A DNA stretch of 29,596 nt from a virus (lineage: Duplodnaviria > Caudoviricetes). The notes under the pieces are model-generated. The model saw only the letters and a list, made by a program, of their open reading frames with translations, ran no database searches and was not told where the DNA came from. Positions 1 through 25,602 of this stretch are shown here, in pieces. Numbering within the stretch: position 1 is the stretch's first letter; every line of letters starts with the position of its first letter. A program made the position numbers and the translations under genes. Where the stretch lies: the IMG/VR virus record IMGVR_UViG_3300008255_004732, positions 1-29,596 of that record; one strand, given 5' to 3'.

Positions 1-606
1 ATGATAACTATATTTCACGGAGAAAATACATCTCTAAGTAAAAAAAAACTACAAGAAAAAATATCCAAAATTGACTCTCGATGGATTGATGGAAGTAATT
101 TAAACATTAACACAGCTAGTAACCTTCTCGAAGTTAATGACTTATTTGGAAACACAAAAACCATAGTTATTTCAAACTATTTTAATATTAAATCTAGAGA
201 CTTATCGCAAATAAGCACAATAATAAAAAATAAAAGCACCGACATTGATATATACATGTGGCAGAGCAAGAAACTGACATTAAACCAAATTAAAATGTTT
301 CCTGACGCATCTGTCCATTGTTTTAATAAAAGCAACAGCGTGTTTGATTGTATATATTCCCTTAAACCTGGCAATACTAACCAGTTCATTGTCCACTATC
401 AAAACGTAGTTGAAGATAATATGTTTGATCTATTTCTGTATCTCGTCAAAAAAGAAGTTAAGAAAAAAATTAGTAACCCTAAATATAAAAAAACGTATTT
501 AAGTTTAATCGAACTAGACTTGTTAAACAAAACCGGAAAACTCGCTATAAAGAAAGAAACCGCCTTAAAGAGAACTCTTCTTCCTATCACCAAGAAAAAT
601 CTATAG
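1..606 (+). CDS. DNA polymerase III delta-like protein (short HolA-like)
   Basis: N-terminal 'MITIFHGEN', 'DLFGNTKTIVISN' and C-terminal 'LIELDLLNKTG' resemble the HolA pattern; shorter than canonical HolA. Confidence 0.55.
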   Translation: MITIFHGENTSLSKKKLQEKISKIDSRWIDGSNLNINTASNLLEVNDLFGNTKTIVISNYFNIKSRDLSQISTIIKNKSTDIDIYMWQSKKLTLNQIKMFPDASVHCFNKSNSVFDCIYSLKPGNTNQFIVHYQNVVEDNMFDLFLYLVKKEVKKKISNPKYKKTYLSLIELDLLNKTGKLAIKKETALKRTLLPITKKNL

Positions 607-641
607 TATTTTACATAAATATAGTCTATTATTTAAATATA

Positions 642-989
642 ATGACTAGCAGAAAAATACTAAAACCTTGGGGTAGCGAATTAAAATTCACAAAAAAATC
701 TTTACCTTACACCGGTAAAATAATCACCATAAAGAAGGGTAAAAGAATTTCACTTCAAAAACATTCTCAAAAAACTGAAACAATTCTATTACAGAAAGGT
801 GAGTCTTTATTAAGAATTGGCGACAAAGAAGTAAGAATGAAACCAATGTTCGGATACACTATTAAAAAAAACGTAGTTCATAGACTAACAGCCATCGAAA
901 CATCCCAACTAATCGAAGTCTCTACACCGGAAAAAGGAACAACCTTTAGAATTGAAGATGACTACAACAGAAAAAATGAAAAATTATAA
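642..989 (+). CDS. Cupin domain protein (mannose-6-phosphate isomerase type II C-terminal-like)
   Basis: 'KPWGSE', 'SLQKHSQKTET', 'VHRL' and 'EVSTPE...RIEDDY' cupin motifs. Confidence 0.8.
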   Translation: MTSRKILKPWGSELKFTKKSLPYTGKIITIKKGKRISLQKHSQKTETILLQKGESLLRIGDKEVRMKPMFGYTIKKNVVHRLTAIETSQLIEVSTPEKGTTFRIEDDYNRKNEKL

Positions 990-1004
990 TAAATTAAAAA
1001 CAAA

Positions 1005-3272
1005 ATGAAAAATATATTGTGGTTTAAAGAAGTAGGTACAGATGATATTGCTCACGTAGGTGGAAAAGGAGCAAATCTTGGAGAAATGTTCAAAATAGGT
1101 ATTCCCGTACCAAACGGATTTATAGTTACTGCAGACGCTTATTTCAATTTCATTAAAACAAATAAACTAGAAGAACCTATTAAAAGTATTTTAAAAACCA
1201 CAGATATAGACGACCCAAATCAACTTCTTTCCTCTAGCAACAAACTTAAGTCTCTAATTGTAAAATCTAAAATACCCACTGATATTGCAAGGGACATAAT
1301 GACCTCTTACAAAAAAATGTGTTCTTACGCAGGTTTAAAAAATACCCCGGTAGCCGTAAGATCTTCTGCCACAGCTGAAGATTTACCAGACGCCTCTTTT
1401 GCTGGACAACAAGAAACTTACCTCAATGTTGAAGGTGAATCTAACGTAATAAAAAGAGTTCAAGATTGCTGGGCTTCAATATTTACCCCTAGAGCTATTT
1501 TTTACCGAGAAAAAAAACATTTTGATCACTTGAAAGTAGGTGTAGCAGTACCTGTGCAGAAAATGATTAATTCAGATGTTTCTGGAATAGCCTTCTCAAT
1601 TAATCCAATAACAAACAACAAGAATCAAATAATAATCGAAACAATTTGGGGATTGGGAGAATATATCGTACAAGGAGTAGTAACTCCTGATCAACACGTA
1701 GTAGATAAAATCAATTGGGAAATTACTAGTCATAATAAAAATGAACAAAAAACACAGTTAATTAGAGCAAAGAGCGAAACTGCAAAAGCTTCTGTACCAA
1801 AATACAAACGAAACAAAACAAAATTAAGCGATGAACTAGTAATTAAACTTGCCAAAATAATTCAAAAACTTCAAGACCATTACAAAAAACCACAAGATGT
1901 AGAATTTGCTATCAAAAACAACAGTATCTTTATTGTACAAACAAGACCAATAACAACCATTGTTTCCAACAAACAAATAATTGATAAGCAGCAGTCCATT
2001 GATAAAAAAGAAGATATCCTAGGAGATCCAGCTAGTCCAGGAACATCTTCTGGAATTGTTGTAGTAATCAAATCTCCAAAAGAAATTAACAAGGTTAAAG
2101 AAGGACAAATACTCGTCACAGACATGACCACACCAGACTTTGTCCCGGCAATGAAAAAAGTAGCTGGAATAATAACGAACAAAGGTGGTCAAACATCTCA
2201 CGCAGCCATAGTATCTAGAGAATTAGGCGTTCCCTGTATTGTCGGAACAAAAAACGCAACGAAGTTGCTAAAAAATGGTGATATGGTTACGATTGATGGA
2301 ACCCAAGGCAAAGTGTGGAAAGGAGATCTGGTTGATAAGTCTATGACCCCCACAACTAAAAAAGAAAGTACGAAAAAAACTGCAACGAAAGTGTACTGTA
2401 ACCTAGGGGAACCAGATCTTGCCAAAGAAATCTCAGAAAGAAATGTTGACGGTATAGGGTTGTTGCGTGCAGAATTTATGATTGCCAATATTGGAATTCA
2501 TCCAAAAAGAATTATTTCAGAAAATAATCAGAAACTGTATATAAACAAATTATCTAAAGAAATTAAAAAATTCTGCGAAAGTTTCTCTCCTAGGCCTGTT
2601 ATATACAGGGCCACCGACTTTAAAACCAATGAATACAGACATTTAAAGTGGGGCAAGTTATACGAACCGATCGAATCAAATCCAATGCTAGGTTTTCGTG
2701 GAGCATCAAGATATATCAGCTCTCAAGATATCTTTAAAATGGAAATTGAAGCAATAAAAACAGTTAGAGACAAGTATGGCTACAAAAATCTATCCTTAAT
2801 GATACCTTTCGTCAGAACACCTCAAGAACTTGTGCAGGTAAAAAAAATTCTACACCAAAATGGACTGGTAAGATCACCCACATTCAAATTACTAATGATG
2901 GTTGAAATACCAAGTAACATCATATTGCTTGAAAAATTTATCGATGTCGGGATTGATGGAATATCAATCGGCAGCAATGATTTAACAATGCTCATACTTG
3001 GTATCGACAGAGATAACAGTGAAGTCGCAAGCTCGTTCAACGAAATGGACCCAGCAGTTTTATGGGCAATTAAGAAAGCAATTGTAACTTCAAAAAAGAG
3101 AGGTATTACAAGTTCAATTTGTGGACAAGCTCCGAGCAACCATCCTGAATTGGTAGAGAAACTAGTCAAATGGGGTGTTACTAGCATTTCAGTTTCACCT
3201 GACGCTATAACAAGAACTCGGGAAACTGTTTCCTGGGCCGAAGAAAAAATCGCATCTACAAAAAAACGATAA
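1005..3272 (+). CDS. ppsA: Phosphoenolpyruvate synthase
   Basis: 'VGGKGANLGEM', 'VAVRSSATAEDLPDASFAGQQETYLN', phospho-His motif 'GGQTSHAAIVSRELG', 'GIGLLRAEF', 'NPMLGFRG', 'SIGSNDLT', 'ICGQAPS'. Confidence 0.96.
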   Translation: MKNILWFKEVGTDDIAHVGGKGANLGEMFKIGIPVPNGFIVTADAYFNFIKTNKLEEPIKSILKTTDIDDPNQLLSSSNKLKSLIVKSKIPTDIARDIMTSYKKMCSYAGLKNTPVAVRSSATAEDLPDASFAGQQETYLNVEGESNVIKRVQDCWASIFTPRAIFYREKKHFDHLKVGVAVPVQKMINSDVSGIAFSINPITNNKNQIIIETIWGLGEYIVQGVVTPDQHVVDKINWEITSHNKNEQKTQLIRAKSETAKASVPKYKRNKTKLSDELVIKLAKIIQKLQDHYKKPQDVEFAIKNNSIFIVQTRPITTIVSNKQIIDKQQSIDKKEDILGDPASPGTSSGIVVVIKSPKEINKVKEGQILVTDMTTPDFVPAMKKVAGIITNKGGQTSHAAIVSRELGVPCIVGTKNATKLLKNGDMVTIDGTQGKVWKGDLVDKSMTPTTKKESTKKTATKVYCNLGEPDLAKEISERNVDGIGLLRAEFMIANIGIHPKRIISENNQKLYINKLSKEIKKFCESFSPRPVIYRATDFKTNEYRHLKWGKLYEPIESNPMLGFRGASRYISSQDIFKMEIEAIKTVRDKYGYKNLSLMIPFVRTPQELVQVKKILHQNGLVRSPTFKLLMMVEIPSNIILLEKFIDVGIDGISIGSNDLTMLILGIDRDNSEVASSFNEMDPAVLWAIKKAIVTSKKRGITSSICGQAPSNHPELVEKLVKWGVTSISVSPDAITRTRETVSWAEEKIASTKKR

Positions 3273-3894
3273 CTATCTCTCCTTTGTCGATATAAGAATC
3301 AGAAGGATCTTCAACGACTTCGTTCTTTTTCGTCATGTTTCTACAAACACGGATTTCAGCCCCCTCAAAAACCAATCTTATATCACTTAACGTTTTTGAT
3401 ACTCTATAAGGGGACTCAAAGCAAACCTTAATTCCGTCGATGTCCTTATATTTCTCCAATAACTTGATTCTCTGACCAGATTTCTTTGGGAGAAAACCTA
3501 AGAAGGAAAACTTTGAAACCGGAAGACCGGACAGTACAACAGCATTTATTACAGAACTAGCTCCAGGCAAAGAAGTATAGGGAAGATTTTCTGACTGGCA
3601 TTTTCTTACTAATAACCACCCAGGATCAGAAATAAGTGGAGTACCTGCGTCACTAACCAAACCCACTTTCTTATTATCTTTCAAATAAGACACAACCTCA
3701 GGAATTTTAGAAGACTCTACTTCTTCATAAAAAGAAATCAACTTGGGTTTATTCACTATTCCAAGTTTATTTAAAAGCACGCCTGTTACACGAGTATCTT
3801 CACATAAAAGATAATCTAGGTTTTTTAGCAATTCAATTGCTCTCAAACTAATATCGCCAATATTCCCAATTGGAGTAGAAATAATGTAAAGCAT
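3256..3894 (-). CDS. rsmI: 16S rRNA (cytidine1402-2'-O)-methyltransferase
   Basis: 'LYIISTPIGNIGDISLRA', 'CEDTR', 'LVSDAGTPLISDPG', 'FLGFLP', 'FESPYR', 'GEIVIV'; 3' end overlaps ppsA by 17 nt. Confidence 0.95.
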   Translation of the reverse strand: MLYIISTPIGNIGDISLRAIELLKNLDYLLCEDTRVTGVLLNKLGIVNKPKLISFYEEVESSKIPEVVSYLKDNKKVGLVSDAGTPLISDPGWLLVRKCQSENLPYTSLPGASSVINAVVLSGLPVSKFSFLGFLPKKSGQRIKLLEKYKDIDGIKVCFESPYRVSKTLSDIRLVFEGAEIRVCRNMTKKNEVVEDPSDSYIDKGEIVIVFL

Positions 3895-10381: not shown

Positions 10382-10674
10382 AATCAATAGACCCAAGTAA
10401 AGATACAAGTGAAGTGAGGAAACTTGAATATCACAGAGAGGGAGATGTTCTATATGAAGTAGAGTTAATTGAAAAGAGCAGGAGAAAAGTAACGGATGAG
10501 GAAAAATTTATAGATGAAGTTACACAAATTTTGGGACGTACAAGGAGGTCTTATGGACACAATCACGGTGTTGATAGAATATCTGCCATTAACCTTGTCA
10601 GGTGGTTAAAGGAAAGACCCAATGATTACACAGAAAGACTCTCCAAATTATTAGAATTTATCCAAAACATATGA
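10378..10674 (+). CDS. Phage hypothetical protein
   Basis: ATGA coupling on both sides. Confidence 0.6.
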   Translation: MKSIDPSKDTSEVRKLEYHREGDVLYEVELIEKSRRKVTDEEKFIDEVTQILGRTRRSYGHNHGVDRISAINLVRWLKERPNDYTERLSKLLEFIQNI

Positions 10675-14399: not shown

Positions 14400-14638
14400 A
14401 TACCAAAACAGGAAAAATAATTACTACGGACGAGCTGAACAAGCTCTCAGAAGAAGAGAGAAAAAATTATATCCAATTATCAGAAGAGCAGCTCAAGATA
14501 TTAGCTGGCTCTCAACCTGATATCAAGCTATTACCTAGTAAAGATATCTCAAATGTATTAATCAGTAAAAAGAAAAGGATTGAAAAGAGAAGAAGAATGA
14601 ATAAGTTAAAAAACAAAAACAGGAGACTACACAAATAA
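14396..14638 (+). CDS. Phage hypothetical protein with basic C-terminus
   Basis: ATGA coupled; K/R-rich tail. Confidence 0.6.
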   Translation: MNTKTGKIITTDELNKLSEEERKNYIQLSEEQLKILAGSQPDIKLLPSKDISNVLISKKKRIEKRRRMNKLKNKNRRLHK

Positions 14639-14639
14639 C

Positions 14640-15188
14640 ATGGATAACAAAATAGACTTCCCAAGAGTAGGAAGGCCACCCAAATTCAAAACAGTAGAGG
14701 AGTTTCAAGACAAGATAGCTGAGTACTTTAGGTCATGTTGGACACAAAAAATTGATATGTACGGCAATCCAGTGTTCGAAAAGGATAACAAAGGTATTAA
14801 AACAGAAGAGAGAGTAATGGTTCAAACAAAACCTTATACAATAACTGGTCTCGCAGTATTTCTCGGTACTACACGTGATTTATTACTTGATTATGAGAAA
14901 AAGAAGAAGTATTCCGACACGGTAAAAAGAGCTAAGAGTATCATTTATGCCTACGCAGAGGAGTTTTTATATTCTGGCAAGAACCCTACCGGAGCAATCT
15001 TCAACCTTAAGTACAACTGGAATTGGAGTGAAAAAACAGAAATTGACTTAACAACAAATGGAGAATCCATATTACAAAATATTTCAGATGAAAAACTTGA
15101 CCAACTCATCCAATCCAAGATCACAAAACTTGGTATTAATGGAGCTATTGAAGGAGAAGGAAAGAAGGATGGCACTAAATCCTCTTAA
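14640..15188 (+). CDS. terS: Terminase small subunit (P22 gp3-like DNA packaging protein)
   Basis: 'GRPPKF...YF', 'PYTITGLAVFLG', 'GAIFNLK'; directly upstream of TerL. Confidence 0.85.
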   Translation: MDNKIDFPRVGRPPKFKTVEEFQDKIAEYFRSCWTQKIDMYGNPVFEKDNKGIKTEERVMVQTKPYTITGLAVFLGTTRDLLLDYEKKKKYSDTVKRAKSIIYAYAEEFLYSGKNPTGAIFNLKYNWNWSEKTEIDLTTNGESILQNISDEKLDQLIQSKITKLGINGAIEGEGKKDGTKSS

Positions 15189-16608
15189 GTATCTCCAACA
15201 GCACCAAAAACAATACGAGGCCTCTTGTTCTGATAGATCAATAAGAGCTCTATTTTGGGGTAACCGTGTTGGAAAGACAGAGTGGGGAGGTCAAGAAACT
15301 GCTAGATACGTAACACCAGAGGCTCCTCTTGAAGTAGAAGTGATTGGTAAGGACAAGATTAGCCTTGGAAAAAAACCACTACCAAAGAGACCTAGACTGG
15401 GACCAGCAGAGATTTGGGTGGGATGTCCATCATTCGATTTGCAGAAAGATACTACCCAGAAGAAACTACAAATGTACCTTCCAAAAGAATCAATAGCACA
15501 TATAACCTATCTTAGGGGAGAAATATGGAAGGATGTTAGGCTAAAGACTGGAGACATTATCACCATGAAATCCTATGAACAAGGAAGAGAGAAGTGGCAG
15601 GGTGCTGGTAAGAGAGTTATCTGGTTTGATGAAGAGCCACCATATGACATTTGGGAGGAAGCTTCTGTGAGACAGGAAGCGGGTATTCCACTAGATATCA
15701 TTCTTACAATGACAGCTATTAAGGGTATGACTTGGGTCTACAACAAAATCTACCTTGCTACTAATAATCCTGATATTTATAGATCAGAAGCAGGGTGGGA
15801 TGATAATCCTTGGCTAACAGAAGATCAGAAAGAAAAAATGAGCCGTGGTAAGAGTAAAGAAGCTATTCTAGTACGTAAAGAGGGTAAATTCATTAAAAGA
15901 GTTGGGTTAATATGCCCATGGTTCTCGCAATCAACACACGTGAGACACTACGACACTCTAGATAGAAGCTGGACATGGTTTGACATCATTGACGGAGGAT
16001 TTAGCGATCCTCTTGCATACTTACTCATGGGTGTAGACGGAGATAACAATGTGCACTTCGTTAAAGGTTTCAGAGAACCCGGATTATTGACATCAGAGAT
16101 TAAGGCCAAAAGAGATGCTATCGTGTCAGGACTCACCATCAACGGAGGATTCTGTGATAACGACAACCCTAGATTAATGGAAGAGTTAAATGAAGGTGGC
16201 ATGAACCTAGTAGCTGTTGAGAAAAAACCAGGAGAAACAAAGAGTTGGGATGAAACTTTGGCCGAGAAACTAGCAGAGTATGGCCAAATACAGAAGGGGA
16301 CTGGTACGCCCAGATTATACATTTCAGACTCACTGATAAAGACAGACGAAGAGACTGGAGATGACTACAACTGGTTGCAACAAGAAATAGAGAACTTGAC
16401 TTGGTTAGAGGTCAGGTCAGGTGACGGGGAAGAAACTAGACCTACTTGGAATGACCATAGAAAGTTTGGACACCATTTTGACGGTGTTAGGGCCGTTGCT
16501 TATGGACTTATGAGCTATATTAAAGATATTAGTAGTGATCCAGACAGAGACCGAAAAGCAAGAGAGGCCGCTAGAGAGATTATGAAACAAATGAGGGGGT
16601 ATTACTAA
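15139..16608 (+). CDS. terL: Terminase large subunit (start uncertain: 15058, 15088, 15139 or 15169)
   Basis: Walker A 'GNRVGKT', 'SYEQGREKWQG', Walker B 'IWFDEEPP', 'DNPWL', RNase H-like 'IDGGFSDP' and 'HHFDGVR'. Confidence 0.92.
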   Translation: MELLKEKERRMALNPLKYLQQHQKQYEASCSDRSIRALFWGNRVGKTEWGGQETARYVTPEAPLEVEVIGKDKISLGKKPLPKRPRLGPAEIWVGCPSFDLQKDTTQKKLQMYLPKESIAHITYLRGEIWKDVRLKTGDIITMKSYEQGREKWQGAGKRVIWFDEEPPYDIWEEASVRQEAGIPLDIILTMTAIKGMTWVYNKIYLATNNPDIYRSEAGWDDNPWLTEDQKEKMSRGKSKEAILVRKEGKFIKRVGLICPWFSQSTHVRHYDTLDRSWTWFDIIDGGFSDPLAYLLMGVDGDNNVHFVKGFREPGLLTSEIKAKRDAIVSGLTINGGFCDNDNPRLMEELNEGGMNLVAVEKKPGETKSWDETLAEKLAEYGQIQKGTGTPRLYISDSLIKTDEETGDDYNWLQQEIENLTWLEVRSGDGEETRPTWNDHRKFGHHFDGVRAVAYGLMSYIKDISSDPDRDRKAREAAREIMKQMRGYY

Positions 16609-16916
16609 TGAGCAATTTACCGGTATTTTTAGGAGTAGATAAAGTCGTCAAGGCAATAGATCATGGAAAGGTGGTCCTCGATCTACAAGTAAGGGCGGGA
16701 AGAATAATTGGGGTAACTACGAATGGTACCAAAAAAACTTTATACAACACCTCTGAAAAAGACATCAACACTAACCAGTCTGCACTAGAGTACATGATTA
16801 AGCGTGTAGCCCAGCAACTAGAATCCGGAGTATCAAGTGAATTGGTTTTTCGAGTTAATAGTAATCAGAACAAGATCAAGAGCATAGAAGTTGAAAGCAA
16901 ACAAACACTAAAATGA
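16608..16916 (+). CDS. Small protein with two alpha-beta-beta repeats (YezD/DUF2292-like by eye)
   Basis: 'VVKAIDHGKVVLDLQVRAGRIIGV' and 'QQLESGVSSELVFRVNSNQNKIKSIEV' share a helix plus beta-hairpin pattern. Confidence 0.55.
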   Translation: MSNLPVFLGVDKVVKAIDHGKVVLDLQVRAGRIIGVTTNGTKKTLYNTSEKDINTNQSALEYMIKRVAQQLESGVSSELVFRVNSNQNKIKSIEVESKQTLK

Positions 16917-17083
16917 ACATAGAAACATCACTTTTACGAATAGAACAGATTAAGCAATGGATTGATAAAAACAAAGAATATCTCTGTCATGCACTCATCA
17001 CTGATAAGACTGAGCTAACCATTTCGATGAAAGGATCTTCGGTTAGATGCAAAGTCACTCAATTCCCAGATGAAGAAAAGTAG
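16913..17083 (+). CDS. 56-aa small protein (not in ORF track), helix plus beta-hairpin pattern
   Basis: ATGA overlap; MNIETSLLRIEQIKQWIDKNKEYLCHALITDKTELTISMKGSSVRCKVTQFPDEEK. Confidence 0.6.
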   Translation: MNIETSLLRIEQIKQWIDKNKEYLCHALITDKTELTISMKGSSVRCKVTQFPDEEK

Positions 17084-17092
17084 TCTGTAGAA

Positions 17093-17159
17093 TGTTATAA
17101 TTTTATTAGTTATCGTAACCAAATTTAGGGCGATCCCGCTTAAAGGGGTCGCCTTTTTT
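17093..17159 (+). promoter_or_regulatory. Leader element copy 1: extended -10 promoter, CGTAACC hairpin, overlapping terminator
   Basis: TGtTATAAT (17093-17101); ATCG-TAA-CC-aaattta-GG-G-CGAT; terminator AGGGCGATCCC/GGGGTCGCCTT with a 6-T run. Confidence 0.75.
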
Positions 17160-17166
17160 GTTGTCT

Positions 17167-19014
17167 ATGTCAGAAAAAATATCAAAACTAGTAGATCTTT
17201 ATCAGAACGATTTATCAGCTATTGAACTAACACATCAATCTTTTGATGAAAAAGAAAAGGTGTTGATGAGTTCTAGTGTTGACCAAATAACAGAAAAAGA
17301 AACCAGATCAAAAGTAACGGATCCTACCATGTTATCAGCCGTGCTTAAGCAAAATAATCAGGTCATGGCGCAAATGCCGTCTGGTAAGGTAACAGCCCTA
17401 ACCAAAGAAAATAAAGGTAAATCGGCTTTCATGGATGTAATCCTCCACAATCACATTTTACCTAACGCAAATAGTCAGTACGATCCATTCACCAAATTTT
17501 GGATGCTTTCCTTCTATAGGAAGGTGTACGGTTCTTTTGGTGTGTTGGTCGATTTCATGACTAATAAAAGTTATACTGGTCCTGATTTCACACTGTTACC
17601 AGCCAGATCAATTATTCCTCAGTCAGGAAAGGTGACGGTGGAAGATAGTGATAGGTTATGGGTAAGGTCTAGGGTAAGCAAAAGTTGGCTAGAGGATAGG
17701 GATCCAAAATACTGGAAAAATATTGACAAGATATTAGAAACTAAAGGTGATTCTTTTGATACAAATGCCCAAAGTTACGTAGAAAGGTCAAACAGTGGAA
17801 TAATGGTTAAGAAGGACGAGTTTGAATTAGTGACTTGTTATGAAGGTGACAGGTGGAGAACATTTCATGCAGCTACTAAGACGGAAATAAGAGACCTTGA
17901 TAAGTCAAAGGGTGATAACAAGATCCCTGTGGTTATGTGCCACTCATACCCATTACTCGATAGATTTTTTGGATTAGGTGATTTTGAAAGAGGTATGACA
18001 CTCCATTCCTCTCTTGGAAGTTTGATAAACCTTTACATGGATGGTGTGAAAATGGGTATATTCCCGCCAACTAAGGTAGATCCATCAATGGTGGAGAATT
18101 GGGATGATTTTAAGGATGGCGTAGGACCTGGGCAAATATATCTAATGAGAAAGTCTAACTTTGACGGTATCGAACAAATGACCGTCAATCCTTCTGGTAT
18201 CCAGTCATTTCAATCAACGTACCAATTCCTCAAGGCAGCTATTTTAACTGTTACCAATACTAGCGATACTAGTATCTCTCAGAAAATGGATCCTGGATTT
18301 GGAAAGACTCCTCAAGCACTTAAAATGCAAGCGTTCTCTCAGGGAATGCAGACTCAATTTGACAGAAGAATGCTAGAACTCAGTGTGGAGAAGATTTACG
18401 ACAGAATGATAGATCTTGTAGCCAGAAGACAGGAAAAACCAATGGAAATGTTCCTCAAGGGAGCAGATTTAGAGAAAATTAAGTCAATAAATCCTGATGT
18501 TGTCGAAATGTTCGAAGTCGGAGATATGGGCAAGGTTAAAATTAAACCACAAGACGTCAATAATGTAGAGTATCGTTATGAAATAGATCAAGGTTCCACC
18601 ACCAAGAAAGATGAGATGTTGGAAAACTCAACCCTCAGTGAAGTCTTGGCCTTTGTTGCCAAGATACCAGGCGCTATGGAGCTACTAGCCACCGGAAAGA
18701 GGCTTCCTCTTGGAAAGAATAAATCTCTTGATCTAGGTGAGCTGGTACAAAGATGGATGATTTCTGGAGGGACAACCGATTGGGATAAAATTATCGTAGA
18801 TGACGCAGCCATGGACCCACAAGCAGAAGAAGGTGGTGAAGGAGAGCAAGTTCAGCAAGACCAAGATCTCAACATGGAAGACCCGAATATAGCAAACGTA
18901 ACTAATCAGGCGTTAAGAGGGGCCCCGGAACAAACTAATCAGCCTATCAATCTACAAGACCCGGCAATATCGCAGGCATTCTCAGAATTACAAAATTTAG
19001 GAGCTAACCAATAA
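17167..19014 (+). CDS. Portal protein (alternative TTG start at 17158)
   Basis: About 615 aa, between TerL and scaffold/coat; 'KVYGSFG', 'RFFGLG', 'GKTP..L', acidic Q-rich tail as in podovirus portals. Confidence 0.82.
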   Translation: MSEKISKLVDLYQNDLSAIELTHQSFDEKEKVLMSSSVDQITEKETRSKVTDPTMLSAVLKQNNQVMAQMPSGKVTALTKENKGKSAFMDVILHNHILPNANSQYDPFTKFWMLSFYRKVYGSFGVLVDFMTNKSYTGPDFTLLPARSIIPQSGKVTVEDSDRLWVRSRVSKSWLEDRDPKYWKNIDKILETKGDSFDTNAQSYVERSNSGIMVKKDEFELVTCYEGDRWRTFHAATKTEIRDLDKSKGDNKIPVVMCHSYPLLDRFFGLGDFERGMTLHSSLGSLINLYMDGVKMGIFPPTKVDPSMVENWDDFKDGVGPGQIYLMRKSNFDGIEQMTVNPSGIQSFQSTYQFLKAAILTVTNTSDTSISQKMDPGFGKTPQALKMQAFSQGMQTQFDRRMLELSVEKIYDRMIDLVARRQEKPMEMFLKGADLEKIKSINPDVVEMFEVGDMGKVKIKPQDVNNVEYRYEIDQGSTTKKDEMLENSTLSEVLAFVAKIPGAMELLATGKRLPLGKNKSLDLGELVQRWMISGGTTDWDKIIVDDAAMDPQAEEGGEGEQVQQDQDLNMEDPNIANVTNQALRGAPEQTNQPINLQDPAISQAFSELQNLGANQ

Positions 19015-19334
19015 TGCCAGAAGAAGCAATACACGCAGGCAGCGATGCCATATTTGCTAGTTATAGGAAACTACAAGAGAAACCTCAAATTAAGAGAGAG
19101 AAGAGTAGGCAAGAACGAGTATCCAATTTAGACAAGTCCGATAGCTGGAAAGCAATATCAGAGACAATCGATATTTACATCCAAAGTCTAAAGGATCTTC
19201 GTGGTATAACCAGCAACGATACGGTGGAAGCTGTAGGATTCAGATTTCTTGCCTCCCAACTTGCCATAGAATACTTAGAAAACGTCAAAGAGCTGCCATC
19301 TAGAGCAGCCAAAGCTCTTAAAAAAGATGAGTAG
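19014..19334 (+). CDS. Small helical head-module protein
   Basis: TAATG coupling to the portal gene. Confidence 0.65.
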   Translation: MPEEAIHAGSDAIFASYRKLQEKPQIKREKSRQERVSNLDKSDSWKAISETIDIYIQSLKDLRGITSNDTVEAVGFRFLASQLAIEYLENVKELPSRAAKALKKDE

Positions 19335-19608
19335 AAGAAGAGATAGGTACATCGAACCAGAGATCATTAAAGTAGTTGAAGAAAAAGAAGAGGACTTGAT
19401 TGAGAATTTGGTCCCAGGTATATCAAAGGATGAGCTGGAGAGTCTAAGAAAAAATGCCATTGATAAGGCTAAAACTACAAGACACTCTTGGAAACAAAAA
19501 GGCTTTTGGTTGGTTTGCCGATCATGTGAGTACCCCCATTCCTCCTGGATAGGACCGGGAAAGGTAATGGTGGGTGAGCAAGATGATGGTACCCCAATCT
19601 TTCAATAG
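19327..19608 (+). CDS. Hypothetical protein with H..CxxC..H metal-binding motif
   Basis: 'HSWKQKG..LVCRSCEYPH'. Confidence 0.65.
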   Translation: MSRRRDRYIEPEIIKVVEEKEEDLIENLVPGISKDELESLRKNAIDKAKTTRHSWKQKGFWLVCRSCEYPHSSWIGPGKVMVGEQDDGTPIFQ

Positions 19609-19610
19609 CT

Positions 19611-19690
19611 TTGACAGACATTGTAGTTTTTGTTATTATTAATTATCGTAACCGAGACAAGGGCGACCAGAAATGGTCGTCCTTTTTTTT
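19611..19690 (+). promoter_or_regulatory. Leader element copy 2: near-consensus sigma70 promoter, CGTAACC hairpin, overlapping terminator
   Basis: TTGACA-17 nt-TATTAT with TG extension; TCG-TAA-CC-gagacaa-GG-G-CGA; terminator GGGCGACCA-gaaa-TGGTCGTCC plus T8. Confidence 0.8.
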
Positions 19691-19742
19691 GGTTTAGAGA
19701 AGTGCGGTCGACCCCACTTATTAGCGAGGTCAGTAACAAACT

Positions 19743-20555
19743 ATGGCAGAAAATGAAACCATGGGGGTAGTGGAAACCCCGCAGGCTACGCCACCTGCTC
19801 AAGGAAGTAATCCACCAGTAGATGATGAGGTCATCGAAACCTCAGAAGTCGAAAGTGAAGAGCAACCAGCCCAAACGAGTGAGAATCAGGACGGGAATCC
19901 TGAGGATCAAGCGGAAAAGCAAGAGGTAAAACCTACTAGATCTGAACGCAGAATCGGACAACTTTTAAACAAGTTGAAAGAATCTGGTAAAACAGAAGTA
20001 CAACCTAGTAATCAACGACCAGGAGAAGATCCTGGATCTCTTTTTACTCCAGAAGAGTTAGAAGAAGGAGTTGTAGATCCTGAATCCCTCGATAAGAGGA
20101 TATCCGATAGGATTAATTCAGGTATACAACAAGCTCTCCAGAAAGAGAAGGAAAACCAAGAAATGGCTAAAGTTAGACAAGAGTTTAACAATGCTGCCAA
20201 AGAACACGAGTCAGACTTAGAAGGAGTAAAGGATCTTGATCCTAGTATTGAAAAGCTAGCAGTCCAGCAATATAACGCTTTGAATTTTCAGTACAACCCT
20301 ATAACGGGCAAACAAATGTTCGTTCCTGCTGTTAAGTTCTCTGAGATTGTTAACAAGATCAACGAGACTGTCCAAAAAGTAGCGGGGGGTAATCAACCTG
20401 GAGAGGTCGATAGTTCTGAAGATAATAAACAATATTCTCAAAGTGTCTCTCAAACACAAGCTATTCCAACAAATGGTTCTATATCCTCACCTAAGAAAGT
20501 ACGGGAAGATACCACCGACTTTAGTGAGTTTGAAAAAACATTTGGCTCGAAATAA
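19743..20555 (+). CDS. Capsid scaffolding protein
   Basis: Acidic disordered N-terminus, 'SERRIGQLL' motif, coiled coil; directly upstream of the coat gene. Confidence 0.75.
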   Translation: MAENETMGVVETPQATPPAQGSNPPVDDEVIETSEVESEEQPAQTSENQDGNPEDQAEKQEVKPTRSERRIGQLLNKLKESGKTEVQPSNQRPGEDPGSLFTPEELEEGVVDPESLDKRISDRINSGIQQALQKEKENQEMAKVRQEFNNAAKEHESDLEGVKDLDPSIEKLAVQQYNALNFQYNPITGKQMFVPAVKFSEIVNKINETVQKVAGGNQPGEVDSSEDNKQYSQSVSQTQAIPTNGSISSPKKVREDTTDFSEFEKTFGSK

Positions 20556-20591
20556 TTCCCTTTATTAAATACTTAATATAAGGAGAAATAA

Positions 20592-21827
20592 ATGGCTAAT
20601 TCATTTACAACCGAACAGAAGGTAGCTAACGCTTTCCTTTTGCTCTTAAAAAATGCCCTTGTTATGGGCAAACTAGTTACTACCAAATTCGATAAAGAGT
20701 TTACTAACAGTGAAGTCGCAGTTGGCGATACTGTTAAAGTCAGAAGGCCTCCAGAATACACCGTCCGTGATGGTCGTGTAGCCAGTGCCCAAGACGTTAT
20801 CGTAGGTTCTGCAGATGTCACCATTGATAAGCAAAAAGGTGTTGATATCAGCTTTACATCCAAGGAAGAGACTCTCTCTGTAGACGAACTTCTAAAAGAT
20901 GAGAACTTAAAAGCTCAAGCTTCTGTCCTTGCTCAGCAAATTGATGAGGATTTAATCGCTCAAACGCTTAAATTCCCCAACTGGGTAGGTACTCCAGGTC
21001 AAACTGTTAGTACTGCCGCTAAGTTCTTTGCTGGTCCTCAACGCATGGATGAACTCGCAATCCCTCAAGAAGGTCGTGCTGCTGTCCTTTCACCTTCTGA
21101 TTACTGGGCTCTTGCCGCAACCTTCACAGGTCTAAACGCTTCTGATGGCACAGTTAAGACTGCTCTTGAGAAGGCTAAGCTTCCTATGCTTGGTAACTGC
21201 CAGCCTTACATGACCCAGAACGTGGTCAATTTGACTGTCGGTACTAGAACAGCCTCCGGTGCTGCAACAATCAATGGTGCAGACCAGAATGTTGCTTACG
21301 CAGACGTTAAAAGCACATACAAGCAATCTTTGTTACTTAAGACTTTAACTGCTGGTCACACCATTAAAGCTGGTGAGATCTTCACCATTGCTGGTGTAAA
21401 CGCTGTTAACCCAAGATCCAAAGCCGATCTCGGATACCTACAGCAATTCGTAGTTCTAGCCGATGCTACTGCAGATGGTAGTGGTTTAGCCACTGTCTCT
21501 ATCAGCAATCCTATTATCATTTCTGGTGCGTACAAGACTTGTACCGCTGCTCCTGCAAACGGTGCTGCTGTTACCTTCCTAGGTACTGCTTCTACCGCTT
21601 ATAGGCAAAATGCTGTCTTCCACAAGGGAGCCATTGCTTTAGTAGGTGCAAAACTAGTTACTCCTAGTGTAGGTAAAGTCGCTTTCGCTACTGATCCTGA
21701 AACTGGTATTAGCATCCGATACTGGAAGACCTCAGACGGTACCAATGACACTCATTTGAATCGATGTGATGTGTTATACGGAACTGCCTGTCTAGATCCT
21801 AGACTCGGTGTAAGATTAAGCGGCTAG
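20592..21827 (+). CDS. Major capsid protein, P22 coat (gp5)-like
   Basis: AAGGAG RBS; 'MANSF', 'GDTVKVRRP', 'GEIFTIAGV.AVNP', 'FHKGAIAL', 'RCDVLYG'. Confidence 0.9.
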   Translation: MANSFTTEQKVANAFLLLLKNALVMGKLVTTKFDKEFTNSEVAVGDTVKVRRPPEYTVRDGRVASAQDVIVGSADVTIDKQKGVDISFTSKEETLSVDELLKDENLKAQASVLAQQIDEDLIAQTLKFPNWVGTPGQTVSTAAKFFAGPQRMDELAIPQEGRAAVLSPSDYWALAATFTGLNASDGTVKTALEKAKLPMLGNCQPYMTQNVVNLTVGTRTASGAATINGADQNVAYADVKSTYKQSLLLKTLTAGHTIKAGEIFTIAGVNAVNPRSKADLGYLQQFVVLADATADGSGLATVSISNPIIISGAYKTCTAAPANGAAVTFLGTASTAYRQNAVFHKGAIALVGAKLVTPSVGKVAFATDPETGISIRYWKTSDGTNDTHLNRCDVLYGTACLDPRLGVRLSG

Positions 21828-21850
21828 TCAAAGCCTTAATTAGAACCAAT

Positions 21851-21887
21851 GGGGGAGTGGTCGTAAATGACTGCTCCCTCTTGTTTT
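21851..21887 (+). terminator. Intrinsic terminator after the coat gene
   Basis: GGGGGAGTGGTC-gtaaat-GACTGCTCCCTC then TTGTTTT. Confidence 0.7.
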
Positions 21888-21951
21888 GCTATAATTAAGT
21901 GTTAACCGTAACCAAATACAGGGCGGCCTAGAGATAGGTCGCTCTTTTTTT
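21887..21951 (+). promoter_or_regulatory. Leader element copy 3: extended -10 promoter, CGTAACC hairpin, overlapping terminator
   Basis: TGcTATAAT (21887-21895), ATGACT 17 nt upstream of the -10; CCG-TAA-CC-aaataca-GG-G-CGG; terminator GGGCGGCCTA-gaga-TAGGTCGCTC plus T7. Confidence 0.78.
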
Positions 21952-21977
21952 ATTATTAGTACTAAAAAGGAGATCAT

Positions 21978-22388
21978 ATGACAAATATGTTGTCAGTCAA
22001 CGAAAAAGAGCCAGTAAAAACTGGTACGCCAGGTTATAAAGAGTTCCCAAAGTGGATGTACGGTCCCAATGGTGAATCTCAAATCTTTAATAGTGAGGTC
22101 GAGATACTCGAAGGATGGCAAGATCATCCTAGTAAAGTTGAAGGGTTCAAAGAGGCAGTCTCTGAAACTCAGGAAGAGCTTCAGGAAGAAGTCGTGAAAG
22201 GAATAGACCCATCTGATGAAGCCATCACTCAAGAAGCCATTAAAGCTAATCTAGAGAAAACAGCCATGCCAAAGCTCTGGAAGATGTGCAAGGATTTAGG
22301 TATTAGCAAAGAAGGTAAGAAGAACGAAGTCGTAGACAGAATCTTCGCCACCCTTGAAGAAAGAGCACCTAAAGTTATCAGTGAATAA
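21978..22388 (+). CDS. Post-coat protein with C-terminal SAP/HeH-like domain
   Basis: AAGGAG RBS; 'EFPKWMY...EGWQDHP' N-domain; 'LWKMCKDLGISKEGKKNEVVDRI' helix-extension-helix. Confidence 0.75.
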   Translation: MTNMLSVNEKEPVKTGTPGYKEFPKWMYGPNGESQIFNSEVEILEGWQDHPSKVEGFKEAVSETQEELQEEVVKGIDPSDEAITQEAIKANLEKTAMPKLWKMCKDLGISKEGKKNEVVDRIFATLEERAPKVISE

Positions 22389-22423
22389 GTTGTCGTAAAA
22401 GTAAAATATTACTTTGTTCCAAA

Positions 22424-22457
22424 AGAGAAGGTCGCTTAACAGCGGCCTTTTCTGTTT
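22424..22457 (+). terminator. Terminator-like hairpin
   Basis: AGAGAAGGTCGCT-taac-AGCGGCCTTTTCT after the stop codon. Confidence 0.6.
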
Positions 22458-22462
22458 AATTA

Positions 22463-22491
22463 TTGCACTCAAGGCCTTGCTCTGCTAAAAT
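22463..22491 (+). promoter_or_regulatory. Sigma70-type promoter
   Basis: TTGCAC-17 nt-TAAAAT with TG extension. Confidence 0.6.
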
Positions 22492-22497
22492 GAATTA

Positions 22498-22653
22498 TCC
22501 TTAAAATTAGGTCAGGCAGAATGCCTTAGAGGGGGACACCACTTGCACCCCACTAAGGACTCTAAGGCAGTCTATCCGACCTAATTAAAAATAAAGCAAG
22601 TGACGTCTTGACTTGACGTACATCTCGCTTTGTATAGCGAGATTTTTGTTTTT
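22498..22653 (+). ncRNA. Candidate structured leader or sRNA ending in a switchable terminator
   Basis: AATTAGGTC/GACCTAATT and TGCCTTAGAG/CTCTAAGGCA perfect stems; ACGTC/GACGT hairpin; terminator ATCTCGCT/AGCGAGAT plus T-rich tail. Confidence 0.6.
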
Positions 22654-22723
22654 AATGGGAAGAGGAATCAGTTGTCTAAGAAACAATTACCCTAAAAAGT
22701 GTGATTCAGGAGACAATTAGATA

Positions 22724-23035
22724 GTTCTTTAAAAGTCAGGGTCAAAAGTACCTTGAAAGGTAACAGGTGGGGGAGGGGTTCCACATAAGGAGGTGCCGTT
22801 ATGCTTGAAAACATAAACGTAAACAATACCATCCCTAAAGAAGAATTTATATTCGTGAGATCCATTGTGAAGAATGGTGTACGAATATACCCCAAGAATT
22901 CATCAGTATTCAAAATACCAGTGAGTTCTTTAAAAAGAAGAAGTTAACCTTCTTCTATAAAAAAAATTAGAGCTTATTAGTTTAACTCCCTCACCTGTTA
23001 CCATTTAAGCAACAAGACCCTGATTTTAAAAGAGC
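22724..23035 (+). repeat. Imperfect ~50-nt inverted repeat enclosing the 48-aa ORF
   Basis: 22724-22743 pairs with 23016-23035, and 22759-22775 pairs with 22986-23002, with G-U pairs on the + strand. Confidence 0.8.
22801..22947 (+). CDS. 48-aa basic small protein (not in ORF track)
   Basis: Strong AAGGAGGT RBS at 22787-22794; MLENINVNNTIPKEEFIFVRSIVKNGVRIYPKNSSVFKIPVSSLKRRS. Confidence 0.7.
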   Translation: MLENINVNNTIPKEEFIFVRSIVKNGVRIYPKNSSVFKIPVSSLKRRS

Positions 23036-23158
23036 GATTATGATAATAAGTAACGAAGATTCTGAGTAGTTTTGTTCACTATTTGATACATTTGTTATAC
23101 TAAATAGCCAGGTATTATAACACAAAGTTTTTAAAATATTCCTCGAAAATGCTAATCA

Positions 23159-23188
23159 AGTATAGTAGTTTTTTGTGGGTGCCGTCAA
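23159..23188 (-). promoter_or_regulatory. Leftward sigma70-type promoter (antisense to the 48-aa ORF transcript)
   Basis: Minus strand TTGACG-18 nt-TATACT. Confidence 0.5.
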
Positions 23189-23229
23189 TATATCAAATTA
23201 CTTAATAGGTAGTAGTTAGCTCACATAAC

Positions 23230-23258
23230 TTGATATTTAAGTTCAACTATACTAAAAT
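23230..23258 (+). promoter_or_regulatory. Rightward sigma70-type promoter
   Basis: TTGATA-17 nt-TAAAAT. Confidence 0.5.
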
Positions 23259-23295
23259 TATATTAGTAAGTTCTTCTCCCACTATTGGGAACTGA

Positions 23296-23322
23296 GCCAC
23301 GATAATATTTCGTGGTTTTTTT
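23296..23322 (+). terminator. Intrinsic terminator
   Basis: GCCACGA...TCGTGGT with a 7-T run. Confidence 0.65.
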
Positions 23323-23367
23323 CGTTTTAATGGGGTGAGACGTTCTTCCTCCAAGATATGGAGTCTG

Positions 23368-23395
23368 AACCGCAGTGTAATGCTGCGGTTTTTTT
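23368..23395 (+). terminator. Intrinsic terminator
   Basis: AACCGCAGT-gtaat-GCTGCGGTT with a 7-T run. Confidence 0.7.
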
Positions 23396-23417
23396 GTTGC
23401 TCTTTAAAAAATTGGTT

Positions 23418-23687
23418 CTATTTCGCTAAGCCTCTTATTACGAGGTAAGGAAGTATTGTCAGGATTACAAGAATTAGGAATATTGTCGCACCACCAATTA
23501 TTGTAGACAAGCCCATTATTACAGATTGAAGTATCAGTCCAAGGATAAAGCTTATGAAATCACCGTTATAAGCCGCATTAAACAACTCCATAACCCACTG
23601 ATAAACAGCTACTATTCCACCTATGGTTACTGAAATTGTCCACAAGATAGAGAAATATCGACTATGCTTCTCAAAATACTTCTTCAT
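23418..23687 (-). CDS. Small integral membrane protein (moron)
   Basis: Two to three hydrophobic segments; coupled to the CAP gene. Confidence 0.7.
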   Translation of the reverse strand: MKKYFEKHSRYFSILWTISVTIGGIVAVYQWVMELFNAAYNGDFISFILGLILQSVIMGLSTIIGGATIFLILVILTILPYLVIRGLAK

Positions 23688-24202
23688 TATTTTTCTAAAT
23701 TACTAAATATTTGAACACTATAAGGAAATTCTACAACAATACACGAGTATTTAAAATCTGATTCAAGCGCAATCCTATGTGCCTCTGAATCTAGCCAAGA
23801 GTCCAACATTGTTACCGGGTCACCGGATCTACCAACATTCTCACTTAAACGAAAGTTTCTTAGTGGGGATCTTTCAGCATCATAAGAAAGTAAGTAATGA
23901 TCTCCTGGTTTAAATTTCTCTAAATTTGGATCTTCAACAACCCTTTTAATTCTCACCTTAGCAAAATCACACAACATTTGATCCTTAGTATAGGCCTGGA
24001 AACCATTCTGAGTCCTCCAGTTCTGCACTAAAGACCAAAGATTGTCCTCAGTAAGACGTGTATCCGACTCTACAACGGGAGTAGGGGTGACGATTGACTT
24101 ACCAAACGAGGGAATCTCTAGTCTTGAACCAATTAAAAATTCAGTTATTAAAACAAAACAAACGATAGTTGCCAGCAAATATACATATTTTTTCACTGGC
24201 AA
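23687..24202 (-). CDS. Membrane-anchored CAP (SCP-like) domain protein (moron)
   Basis: N-terminal TM; 'LVQNWRTQNG', 'LCDFAKVR', 'H', 'ENVG', 'WLDSEAHR'. Confidence 0.8.
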   Translation of the reverse strand: MPVKKYVYLLATIVCFVLITEFLIGSRLEIPSFGKSIVTPTPVVESDTRLTEDNLWSLVQNWRTQNGFQAYTKDQMLCDFAKVRIKRVVEDPNLEKFKPGDHYLLSYDAERSPLRNFRLSENVGRSGDPVTMLDSWLDSEAHRIALESDFKYSCIVVEFPYSVQIFSNLEK

Positions 24203-24237
24203 TATTATATCACTGTTTGTAAAAAAGGAGACAAATT

Positions 24238-25602
24238 ATGGGTATATTTGACTTTAGTAATGCATATTATGAGCAGACCAAGAATAATCAGCAACCCAGT
24301 ACACAACAGCTTCAAGGAAATTTCGATGGGGGGTTTAATGCCAATAAACCTGCATCAAGTGCAAAAAGCGGCTCCACCCAATGGAATGAAGCATGGAATT
24401 CCGGTTATACTAACGCAAATTCTAGTAGCAATCCTTTTTCGGGTAAAGTAGTTGACGGTTACGATTTAGGTTCTGGCTATTTACAAGGACAACAAAAGTA
24501 CTTTAGCGATAACAAAAAAACTGGCAACGACAATTATAGCCCAGCACCTCCATCAAATTACAATTCATCACCTTCCTCCTCAAACAACAACTCAGGCGGT
24601 CAAGATGCCCTTATCAGTGCCATGATGGCAAAAGGGCACAGTAGAGATAGCGCTTTAGCTGCTTTATCTGGTCGTGGATACGAATCTTTAGCTAATGAGT
24701 ACCTAGGAGCCAGCAATGGAGGTTCTGATGCCGCTCTCAAAGCGTGGCAAGATCAACAGAGAGGTGTCATTGAGTCAGGATACAACGAATATGAAAACAG
24801 GCTTAAGGGTATGCAAGGGGATATCAGTTCCTCTAGAGATCAACACATCAGCACCGCAGAAGATACTTACTCAAAGATTTTCGGTGGCTTAGATGAACAG
24901 AAAGGAGCCAATTTAGAGAAGCTAGGAGCAGGGAGACAAGCCGTCTCACAAAGACAATCAGAATCAATCGAAGACCTCAAAAAGAACCTCGCAGACGTCG
25001 TAAGAGGCACCAGTATGCAACTTGGAGCCATAGGAGCAGGTGATACCAGCGCAGCTAAGGTAATGATGCCTTACGCTTATACAAAGATAGCAGGCAATGA
25101 AGAAGGCGGAATCCGAAGACAAGCTAATCAACAATTCTTCGATATCGATCAAGAAGAAAGAGATACTAACCTCCAGTACTCTCAAATGTGGAAAGACACC
25201 GAAATCGAGAAAAACAACTCTATCCAAGAGATAAAAGACAAATATGGTGCAATGTTACAGAATATTCAATATTCACTTGCTCAAGCACCTTTAGACAAGC
25301 AAAAAGATCTTTTCAATCTTAATCAAGCAATTTTGGGCGAAGCTTACAACAAATTAGCCACACTTGAGGCAGAGGATAGGCAAAATAAGCAAAACTTAAA
25401 GACTTGGGCCACCAACAGGCTTTCCGAACTTAACAACGCCAAGCTCACAATGGCCAATAGCGCTAAGTTCACCCCAGAAGATATTTTGTACTCTGAGTTA
25501 AAAATGCCAGGGGCAATTCAAGCCAGCTCAGGCAATGAGAATATGGCAAACATAAATTACTCAGCACTCGCAAAAAAGATCAGAGAGGATTATTTATCTT
25601 AA
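24238..25602 (+). CDS. Probable internal virion/ejection protein
   Basis: AAGGAG RBS; N/S/G-rich N-terminus and Q/A-rich coiled coil with no Cys, as in podovirus DNA-transfer proteins. Confidence 0.6.
   Translation: MGIFDFSNAYYEQTKNNQQPSTQQLQGNFDGGFNANKPASSAKSGSTQWNEAWNSGYTNANSSSNPFSGKVVDGYDLGSGYLQGQQKYFSDNKKTGNDNYSPAPPSNYNSSPSSSNNNSGGQDALISAMMAKGHSRDSALAALSGRGYESLANEYLGASNGGSDAALKAWQDQQRGVIESGYNEYENRLKGMQGDISSSRDQHISTAEDTYSKIFGGLDEQKGANLEKLGAGRQAVSQRQSESIEDLKKNLADVVRGTSMQLGAIGAGDTSAAKVMMPYAYTKIAGNEEGGIRRQANQQFFDIDQEERDTNLQYSQMWKDTEIEKNNSIQEIKDKYGAMLQNIQYSLAQAPLDKQKDLFNLNQAILGEAYNKLATLEAEDRQNKQNLKTWATNRLSELNNAKLTMANSAKFTPEDILYSELKMPGAIQASSGNENMANINYSALAKKIREDYLS

Follow-up and report, generated by a model that had tools for sequence, protein, structure and literature searches.

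A small hairpin overlapping the terminators before virion genes of a Patescibacteria prophage and its relatives: a putative antitermination switch

In the provirus IMGVR_UViG_3300008255_004732, a complete IMG/VR entry of 29,596 nucleotides (nt) that we analysed over its full length (the window, W), three leaders before virion genes share a short element, CGTAACC-N7-GGGCG. Its bases can fold into a weak bulged hairpin that takes up the 5' arm of an intrinsic terminator. This feature is genuine and has been conserved. Its function can be proposed from the sequence: we suggest a local, factor-dependent antitermination switch, by which each virion cassette would be turned on only when an RNA-binding factor made by the phage stabilises the small hairpin. 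We put this mechanism forward tentatively, at somewhat less than an even chance of being correct.

A pattern search found the motif without mismatch at 17114-17132, 19647-19665 and 21907-21925, all on the plus strand. The same element thus precedes the putative portal gene, the putative scaffold and coat genes and the genes behind the coat gene, as a preliminary description of this DNA had it. The window holds no fourth site, even when up to two mismatches are allowed; in 100 shuffles the mean was 0.37 sites, and three sites were reached twice. The entire record contains three forward, no reverse and no control motif matches. Each copy follows an extended -10 box (TGnTATAAT or TGnTATTAT), whose end lies 12, 7 and 11 nt before CGTAACC in copies 1, 2 and 3, within the range of 7-12 nt given before. 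Each leads into a predicted intrinsic terminator, that is, a G+C-rich stem-loop (11 pairs in all three copies) with an immediate U run (6, 8 and 7 T). The bases flanking the motif are T..A in copies 1 and 2 and C..G in copy 3, where the flanking G indeed stands opposite a U in the terminator stem.

Scans of IMG/VR and JGI metagenomes by pattern and by protein yielded four further contigs with the element, here called A (L210+L211, 30,183 nt), B (L212+L213, 34,094 nt, complete, terminal repeats present), C (L214, a fragment of 14,799 nt) and D (L343, 2,336 nt). An exact-pattern scan of IMG/VR with 14 fixed bases returned 109 loci, one of them real (L123); a metagenome scan with the coat alignment added one small contig (D), and a scan with the alignment of the protein p106 nothing new. 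A covariance model (R1) built on nine copies and used at a cut-off of E <= 0.001 found 17 copies in five phage contigs (W 3, A 3, B 6, C 4, D 1), each of them immediately upstream of a virion gene that runs the same way. At syntenic joints, copies precede the putative portal gene and the scaffold gene and follow the coat gene; B has additional ones before a tail-fibre-like gene, a 427-amino-acid (aa) gene and a glycosyltransferase-like gene. The model found no copy in 19 further loci of the wider clade, and blastn of 14600-22400 matched none of 50,697 phage records. Among the 120 loci listed by a pattern scan of 185,579 species genomes, none had the architecture (they were chance terminators), and no host prophage copy was found. 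A search of public sequencing runs listed no RNA run that contains the phage.

The motif had not been recognised at first sight, and no Rfam 15 family matched it: there were no matches at gathering threshold across the whole window, and in E-value mode around the three copies the four hits (E 0.07-0.34) were headed by MicC with 29.8 bits (gathering 90) and L20_leader with 25.1 bits (gathering 58.7). In our literature searches we came across no phage device of this kind.

Conservation is confined to particular parts of the element. CGTAACC is exact in 14 of the 17 copies (the exceptions being CGTTACC in A and CGTAACT and CGTTACT in variant copies of B and C) and GGGCG in 15, with AGGCG in the two variants. 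The loop between them is A-rich and unconserved, 7 nt long in six copies and 8 nt in nine, and the distal terminator stem and loop vary from copy to copy. The coat proteins of the carrier phages share a mere 68-71% identity. In the terminator, the 5' arm is constant in sequence and the 3' arm keeps pairing only (93.7% of cells paired, G.U tolerated), with two-sided changes at five of nine pairs. The 5' arm thus has a second job. Judged from these patterns, the element is a real unit under selection.

We then considered how the conserved bases fold. In all 15 standard copies the minimum free energy fold of the nascent 5' part consists of Y-R, C-G, G-C, U.G, an AA bulge, C-G and C-G, at -2.9 to -5.7 kcal/mol, and the small hairpins at W17114 and A3977 have one additional outer pair. 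A bulged hairpin had been described before and can indeed form. However, the UAA/G loop proposed for it (-1.4, -2.2 and -3.3 kcal/mol in the window) loses to the fold with the U.G pair and the AA bulge (-3.6, -3.7 and -4.8 kcal/mol). The claim that hairpin and terminator exclude each other holds in all 17 copies, since one stretch, GGGCGR (in the variants AGGCGA), serves the hairpin as 3' strand and the terminator as 5' arm. The terminators of the standard copies reach -14.1 to -20.5 kcal/mol and are followed by 5 to 8 T, which argues for termination as the default. As a control we examined 11 plain terminators of W, A, B and C, counting an upstream hairpin as comparable if it took at least five of the seven arm bases at -2.9 kcal/mol or better. 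None had one; in two cases a hairpin takes enough bases, yet at only -1.4 and -1.7 kcal/mol. The plain terminator behind the coat gene of the window likewise has no strong competitor (-2.2 kcal/mol, four of seven arm bases).

Covariation supports the small hairpin as an RNA structure. In the model-based alignment 94 of 94 cells pair, pairing falls to 22-64% when the partner is shifted by one to three columns, and the covariation score was equalled in none of 500 shuffles. The outer pair covaries as previously stated, with U-A in 11 and C-G in five of 16 distinct rows. A second pair changes on both sides in the two divergent copies of B and C (CGTAACT/CGTTACT...AGGCGA): U-A replaces C7-G1', the lower stem and the bulge are kept, and the upper stem is longer and closed by a tetraloop. 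This second change is read from the folds, as the model-based alignment puts those bases in different columns.

The promoter, which had been taken as an obligatory part of the element, is not one. A -10 box of its own lies 7-31 nt upstream in 13 of the 17 copies and is absent from the other four, two of which begin right where the gene upstream has its stop codon. The T run is followed by the putative portal ATG after 7 nt in W and after 0 nt in A, and in two promoter-less variant copies (B and C) an ATG comes immediately after the T run. The gap from the terminator to the start of the putative portal gene is too short for another promoter. Thus, these genes can be expressed only through the terminator. 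The coat gene, usually the most expressed late gene, also stands behind a copy; a plain terminator ends its transcript, and a fresh promoter and copy 3 follow, an arrangement more readily explained by local than by processive action.

These findings bear on the possibility that no switch exists. Constitutive leaky terminators, as attenuators or insulators, would then set the ratios of the cassette transcripts, and the motif would tune termination or RNA stability, or would have spread by duplication or gene conversion. An identical 38-nt core in four copies of B is a sign of conversion, the copies sit at mosaic joints (only 16608-25602 is common to A, B and C), and the reader of the hairpin is known only as a candidate. 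But stems of -14 to -20 kcal/mol followed by 5-8 T are, from general knowledge, expected to be efficient terminators, which is awkward with the coat gene behind one. Hitch-hiking, moreover, leaves unexplained both the paired changes and the invariant CGTAACC/GGGCG beside variable loops and stems, in phages at 40-70% protein identity. We regard this explanation as quite unlikely.

The antitermination switch that we propose would work as follows. Host RNA polymerase would start at the extended -10 boxes, transcribe a leader of about 45 nt and stop at the U runs by default. The weak bulged hairpin, Y-CGU-AA-CC / GG-GCG-R, would borrow the 5' arm of the terminator as its 3' strand. A factor, for which the small protein p56 encoded upstream of copy 1 is the best candidate, would bind the AA-bulged hairpin, and transcription would run on. 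This action would be local, not processive.

The logic is that of attenuation of the BglG type at ribonucleic antiterminator (RAT) sites, and the setting resembles the lambdoid late gate. At the RAT sites of BglG, SacY and LicT, too, the 5' arm of the terminator is overlapped by a hairpin that is weak and imperfect and contains unpaired bases, with one locally acting site per terminator and a default termination that is relieved by a hairpin-stabilising protein. The hairpin described here is much smaller: an element of 21 nt with six pairs, one AA bulge and an unconserved A-rich loop of 7-8 nt, compared with about 29 nt and two asymmetric loops in RAT. It also occurs in a phage setting, before virion genes and in 3-6 copies per genome, where an input from sugars and the phosphotransferase system is implausible, and Pfam scans of the 45 open reading frames (ORFs) of the window found no protein with a CAT or PRD domain. 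The targets of ANTAR proteins (AmiR, NasR, EutV) are two tandem hexaloop hairpins, the second of which overlaps a terminator, and require an ANTAR-domain protein; here there is one hairpin with a 7-8-nt loop (a tetraloop in the variants), and the Pfam scans of the window found no ANTAR domain.

Leaders of a related layout occur in the wider clade. A scan with p93, a small protein of the head module, gave 26 loci, of which L356, L357 (= L355) and L361 (= L360) were dropped and 23 were scored. An intrinsic terminator lies 0-35 nt before the putative portal ATG in 20 of these 23 loci, and in 19 of the 20 a sigma-70-type promoter stands 58-101 nt upstream of the last T of the run; no leader terminator is present in L362 and L377, and L372, whose start is mis-called, was not scorable. 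Each subgroup has its own leader hairpin, with stems that covary within the subgroup, a near-consensus promoter upstream and the terminator downstream. The hairpin of L338 and L363 is UC(UAA)CCAGA...UCUGG(C)GA, with a gap of 8 nt to the terminator, and that of the L339 type is GGYGUAGUC...GAYUACRCC, with a gap of 5 nt. In L373-L376 the hairpins CGUUACA/UGUAGCG, CAUUACA/UGUAAUG and CUCAGCA/UGUUGAG abut the terminator. The putative portal leaders of the wider clade (L338/L359, L363, L339 type, L373-L376) thus add at least three further hairpin types. In L338, L363 and L364 the bases CAUAG join hairpin and terminator.

A second leader family, which resembles the putative portal leaders of L373-L376, is present in W, A and B. 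Its units run from GTTCTTC through a 5-6-bp hairpin and one base to a terminator whose 5' arm is CTGAACC(G/A)C and whose T run is about 7 long; the stems differ between copies, and pairing is kept. The window has two tandem units at 23230-23397 on the plus strand (GTTCTTC at 23270 and 23343, terminators at 23294-23318 and 23367-23391), the first of them behind TTGATA-17-TAAAAT. Elsewhere the family was found at 10515, 15265, 21897 and 24655 of A (L210/L211) and at 2140 and 26168 of B (L212/L213, reverse-complement coordinates).

Hairpins beside rather than across the terminator would suit a loading site of the nut/boxB kind, where a hairpin-bound phage protein rides RNA polymerase processively and the overlap seen here is only compaction. 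Relatives keep a subgroup-specific covarying hairpin next to a terminator that closely precedes the putative portal ATG, as detailed above. One loading site would be needed per promoter-bearing cassette, compare nutL and nutR of phage lambda, and the lambda sites are likewise short phage-specific hairpins just after a promoter, several per genome, with a small phage protein as the presumed reader. A complex loaded at copy 2, however, would pass the plain coat terminator and make the new promoter and copy 3 superfluous; four copies lie within operons and have no promoter; and in all 17 copies the presumed loading hairpin would be lost once the terminator, with which it shares bases, forms. Whereas lambda N acts processively past downstream terminators, the layout here argues for local action. 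No boxA-like element was recognised by its consensus, and the Pfam scans found no N-like or NusG-like protein among the ORFs of the window. A loading site therefore seems to us unlikely. The putL and putR sites of phage HK022 are also cis-acting leader RNA structures downstream of phage promoters that defeat terminators. They consist, however, of two larger stem-loops of about 70 nt that act on the polymerase processively and without a protein, whereas the element described here, with about 21 nt and -3 to -6 kcal/mol, is far too weak to beat a terminator alone.

In the lambdoid late gate (PR', 6S RNA, tR' and Q) a terminator stands only tens of bases behind a strong promoter, ahead of the capsid genes, and the late genes stay off until an antiterminator acts. 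BrrG of the Bartonella gene transfer agent is presented as a Q21-like example of such a gate in a preprint (bioRxiv 10.1101/2024.11.20.624540). By analogy, the conserved bases could be a DNA site for a late activator or a Q-like factor near the promoter, with the hairpin potential incidental: in most copies the motif lies just downstream of a -10 box, and Q-type systems, including the BrrG/Q21 example of that preprint, pair a constitutive promoter with a nearby terminator. Q, however, uses a DNA site fixed at one promoter and acts processively, whereas the motif is repeated per cassette, at 7-31 nt from the -10 box or, in four copies, with no promoter at all. Further, the Y..R and C7..G1' changes preserve pairing, as an RNA would and a DNA site need not, and the Pfam scans of the window ORFs found no Q-family protein. 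We hold a DNA site to be highly improbable.

The short terminated transcripts could also be the product themselves: small RNAs, about 45-55 nt long, with a role in trans as protein decoys or through base pairing. The 13 copies with their own -10 box, and a sequence of 5' hairpin, terminator hairpin and U tail that resembles bacterial small RNAs, would suit such a role. But the other four copies have no promoter, each copy stands directly before a virion gene of the same orientation, whose start codon may follow the T run at once, and there is no conserved complementary target: GGTTACG occurs 2, 0, 1 and 0 times in W, A, B and C, in unrelated places. This role appears very unlikely to us. A promoter for a phage RNA polymerase, with CGTAACC as specificity box, an AT-rich melting region and GGG at +1, was rejected, as there is no RNA polymerase gene and the transcript would start inside its own terminator.

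For the reader of the hairpin, p56 is the best candidate, by an association that extends over one small clade. All six genes of its family (W 1, A 1, B 2, C 2) stop 1-48 nt before a copy, and a hidden Markov model of the family, run on the ORFs of 24 related contigs without the motif, had no hit at E <= 10. The family comprises 17 clusters among 5.8 billion proteins, all of 55-62 aa, and belongs to no Pfam family; p56 matched no PDB sequence, and a profile comparison with p102, the product of the adjoining gene, gave a probability of 0.3%. The gene for p102, a second and weaker candidate, adjoins the putative portal leader throughout the clade, including L362 with its lack of a leader terminator, so that its link to the leader is inseparable from synteny. 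No Pfam family was found in the 19 p102 members scanned, and its AlphaFold model is unusable (pLDDT 42). An assignment of p102 to DUF2292 (PF10055) was discarded: none of the 19 homologues matched at E <= 1, and its only backing was structural similarity among Atlas models of low confidence (TM 0.63-0.65). A wider claim would be that the element belongs to an undescribed family of phage RNA switches with its own reader of about 56 aa and a new fold, by which phages of the candidate phyla radiation (CPR) would time the virion programme cassette by cassette, with host-type promoters throttled and no single master late promoter. This we consider possible, if doubtful.

Several observations weigh against the proposed switch. 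Covariation is limited to two pairs; the other four to five pairs of the hairpin are invariant and, as they never vary, uninformative either way. Independent covariation events are few, because the four C-G copies in B are near-identical and were probably homogenised by gene conversion. C8485 is their orthologue, and copy 3 of the window, in which the G faces a terminator U, seems to have arisen separately. In the relatives the leader hairpins abut the terminator or precede it by 5-8 nt and do not overlap it, the hairpins of the second leader family abut it as well, and complete overlap is peculiar to the CGTAACC type. Competition alone may therefore not be the conserved principle, which may be hairpin recognition instead. 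The Pfam scans of the 45 window ORFs (E <= 0.01) found no antiterminator family at all, CAT_RBD and PRD included. By our reading of its sequence p56 is not notably basic, and only two of 19 members of its family have weak PHROG matches to a transcriptional regulator (E 0.02). The link between p56 and the motif could be shared ancestry of four related phages.

The first 3.9 kb of the window (1-3894) are host DNA. The phosphoenolpyruvate synthase encoded there has 68-70% identity to proteins that their sources label Candidatus Shapirobacteria, Microgenomates or Patescibacteria; on the strength of this identity, the window is a prophage of an ultra-small CPR bacterium. Common to W, A, B and C are p102, p56, the putative portal protein, p106, p93, the putative scaffold protein, the coat protein, p136 and a 454-aa protein. 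The block that encodes them, from p102 to the 454-aa gene, is the only part of the window with protein relatives in contigs A, B and C, where none were found for the large terminase and all early genes. The repeated leaders are located at the joints of this shared block. The features are listed in Table 1.

Table 1. Leader elements and neighbouring genes in the window, in order of position
Feature	Position	Strand	Remarks
Cupin gene	642-989		Host flank of the provirus
Phosphoenolpyruvate synthase gene	1005-3272		Host flank
TP_methylase-family (methyltransferase) gene	3256-3894	-	Host flank
p102 gene, 102 aa	16608-16916	+	Second, weaker candidate reader
p56 gene, 56 aa	16913-17083	+	Stops 30 nt before copy 1; candidate hairpin reader
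Copy 1, extended -10 box TGTTATAAT	17094-17102	+	No -35 hexamer; read from sequence
Copy 1, small hairpin U-CGUAACC-AAAUUUA-GGGCG-A	17113-17133	+	Exact pattern; minimum free energy of nascent part, -3.6 kcal/mol
Copy 1, predicted intrinsic terminator	stem 17127-17155, T6 run 17154-17159	+	-20.0 kcal/mol; putative portal ATG at 17167
Putative portal gene, 615 aa	17167-19014	+	By position and size; weak match to phrog_1216 (portal protein), E 0.0011; no Pfam match, no PDB sequence match
p93 gene	19327-19608	+	Small head-module protein
Copy 2, promoter TTGACA-17-TGTTATTAT	19611-19639	+	11/12 hexamer matches; TG before -10 box
Copy 2, small hairpin U-CGUAACC-GAGACAA-GGGCG-A	19646-19666	+	-3.7 kcal/mol
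Copy 2, predicted intrinsic terminator	stem 19659-19684, T8 run, region to 19690	+	-19.7 kcal/mol; precedes putative scaffold and coat genes
Putative scaffold gene	19743-20555	+	Assigned from position alone
P22-type coat gene	20592-21827	+	phrog_283, 3e-87; PF11651, 8e-46
Plain terminator after coat gene	21851-21880	+	13 pairs; motif absent
Copy 3, promoter ATGACT-17-TGCTATAAT	21867-21895	+	Overlaps 3' half of plain coat-gene terminator
Copy 3, small hairpin C-CGUAACC-AAAUACA-GGGCG-G	21906-21926	+	Outer pair C-G; -4.8 kcal/mol
Copy 3, predicted intrinsic terminator	stem 21920-21945, T7 run, region to 21951	+	-17.9 kcal/mol; precedes 136-aa gene
p136 gene, 136 aa	21978-22388	+	SAP-like C-terminus; behind copy 3

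The scaffold leader has features of its own. Past the copy 2 terminator, in the 5' untranslated region of the putative scaffold gene (19700-19740, plus strand), GTG(c)GGTCGACCCC ... G-N-GGTCAG is conserved in W, A, B, C and D. It can form a local hairpin with a GG-TCGA-CC tip and an outer stem that varies by phage (AAGTG/CACTT, GAG/CTC, CTAG/CTAG); RNAalifold pairs GACC with GGTC instead. This segment may be a second regulatory site, e.g. for scaffold autoregulation. The scaffold copies at L210:6591-6620 (A) and L343:92-115 (D) are followed within about 15 nt after the terminator by GGTTAC, the complement of GTAACC, and those of B and C retain GTTAC or TTAC at this position. GGTTAC could form a long-range helix around the terminator in the read-through RNA.

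Among the small proteins of the head module p93 is the best conserved (E 1e-20 to 4e-29 in distant relatives). Its invariant residues H53, W55, C64, C67 and H71 include a zinc-knuckle-like pattern, H-x10-C-x2-C-x3-H; the protein belongs to no known family. Behind the p136 gene, a stretch of about 1 kb (22389-23417) has no long plus-strand ORF and four terminator-like sites on the plus strand (22424, 22622, 23294 and 23367), and two minus-strand ORFs (23418-24202) come after it. The stretch may be a cluster of small transcription units.

To our knowledge, gene regulation in phages of CPR bacteria (Patescibacteria) is essentially unstudied, and we know of no phage or host of this group in routine culture. 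Regulatory devices derived from sequence are therefore the main way in. As promoter, hairpin, terminator and start codon follow one another in 20 of the 23 related loci, the principle probably reaches well beyond the CGTAACC motif. If the proposed mechanism is true, these phages would time their late genes by distributed local antitermination on host-type promoters, a third logic beside those of lambda N and Q. The RNA operator would be very small (about 21 nt), its protein reader possibly very small as well, and the pair could serve as a compact orthogonal switch.

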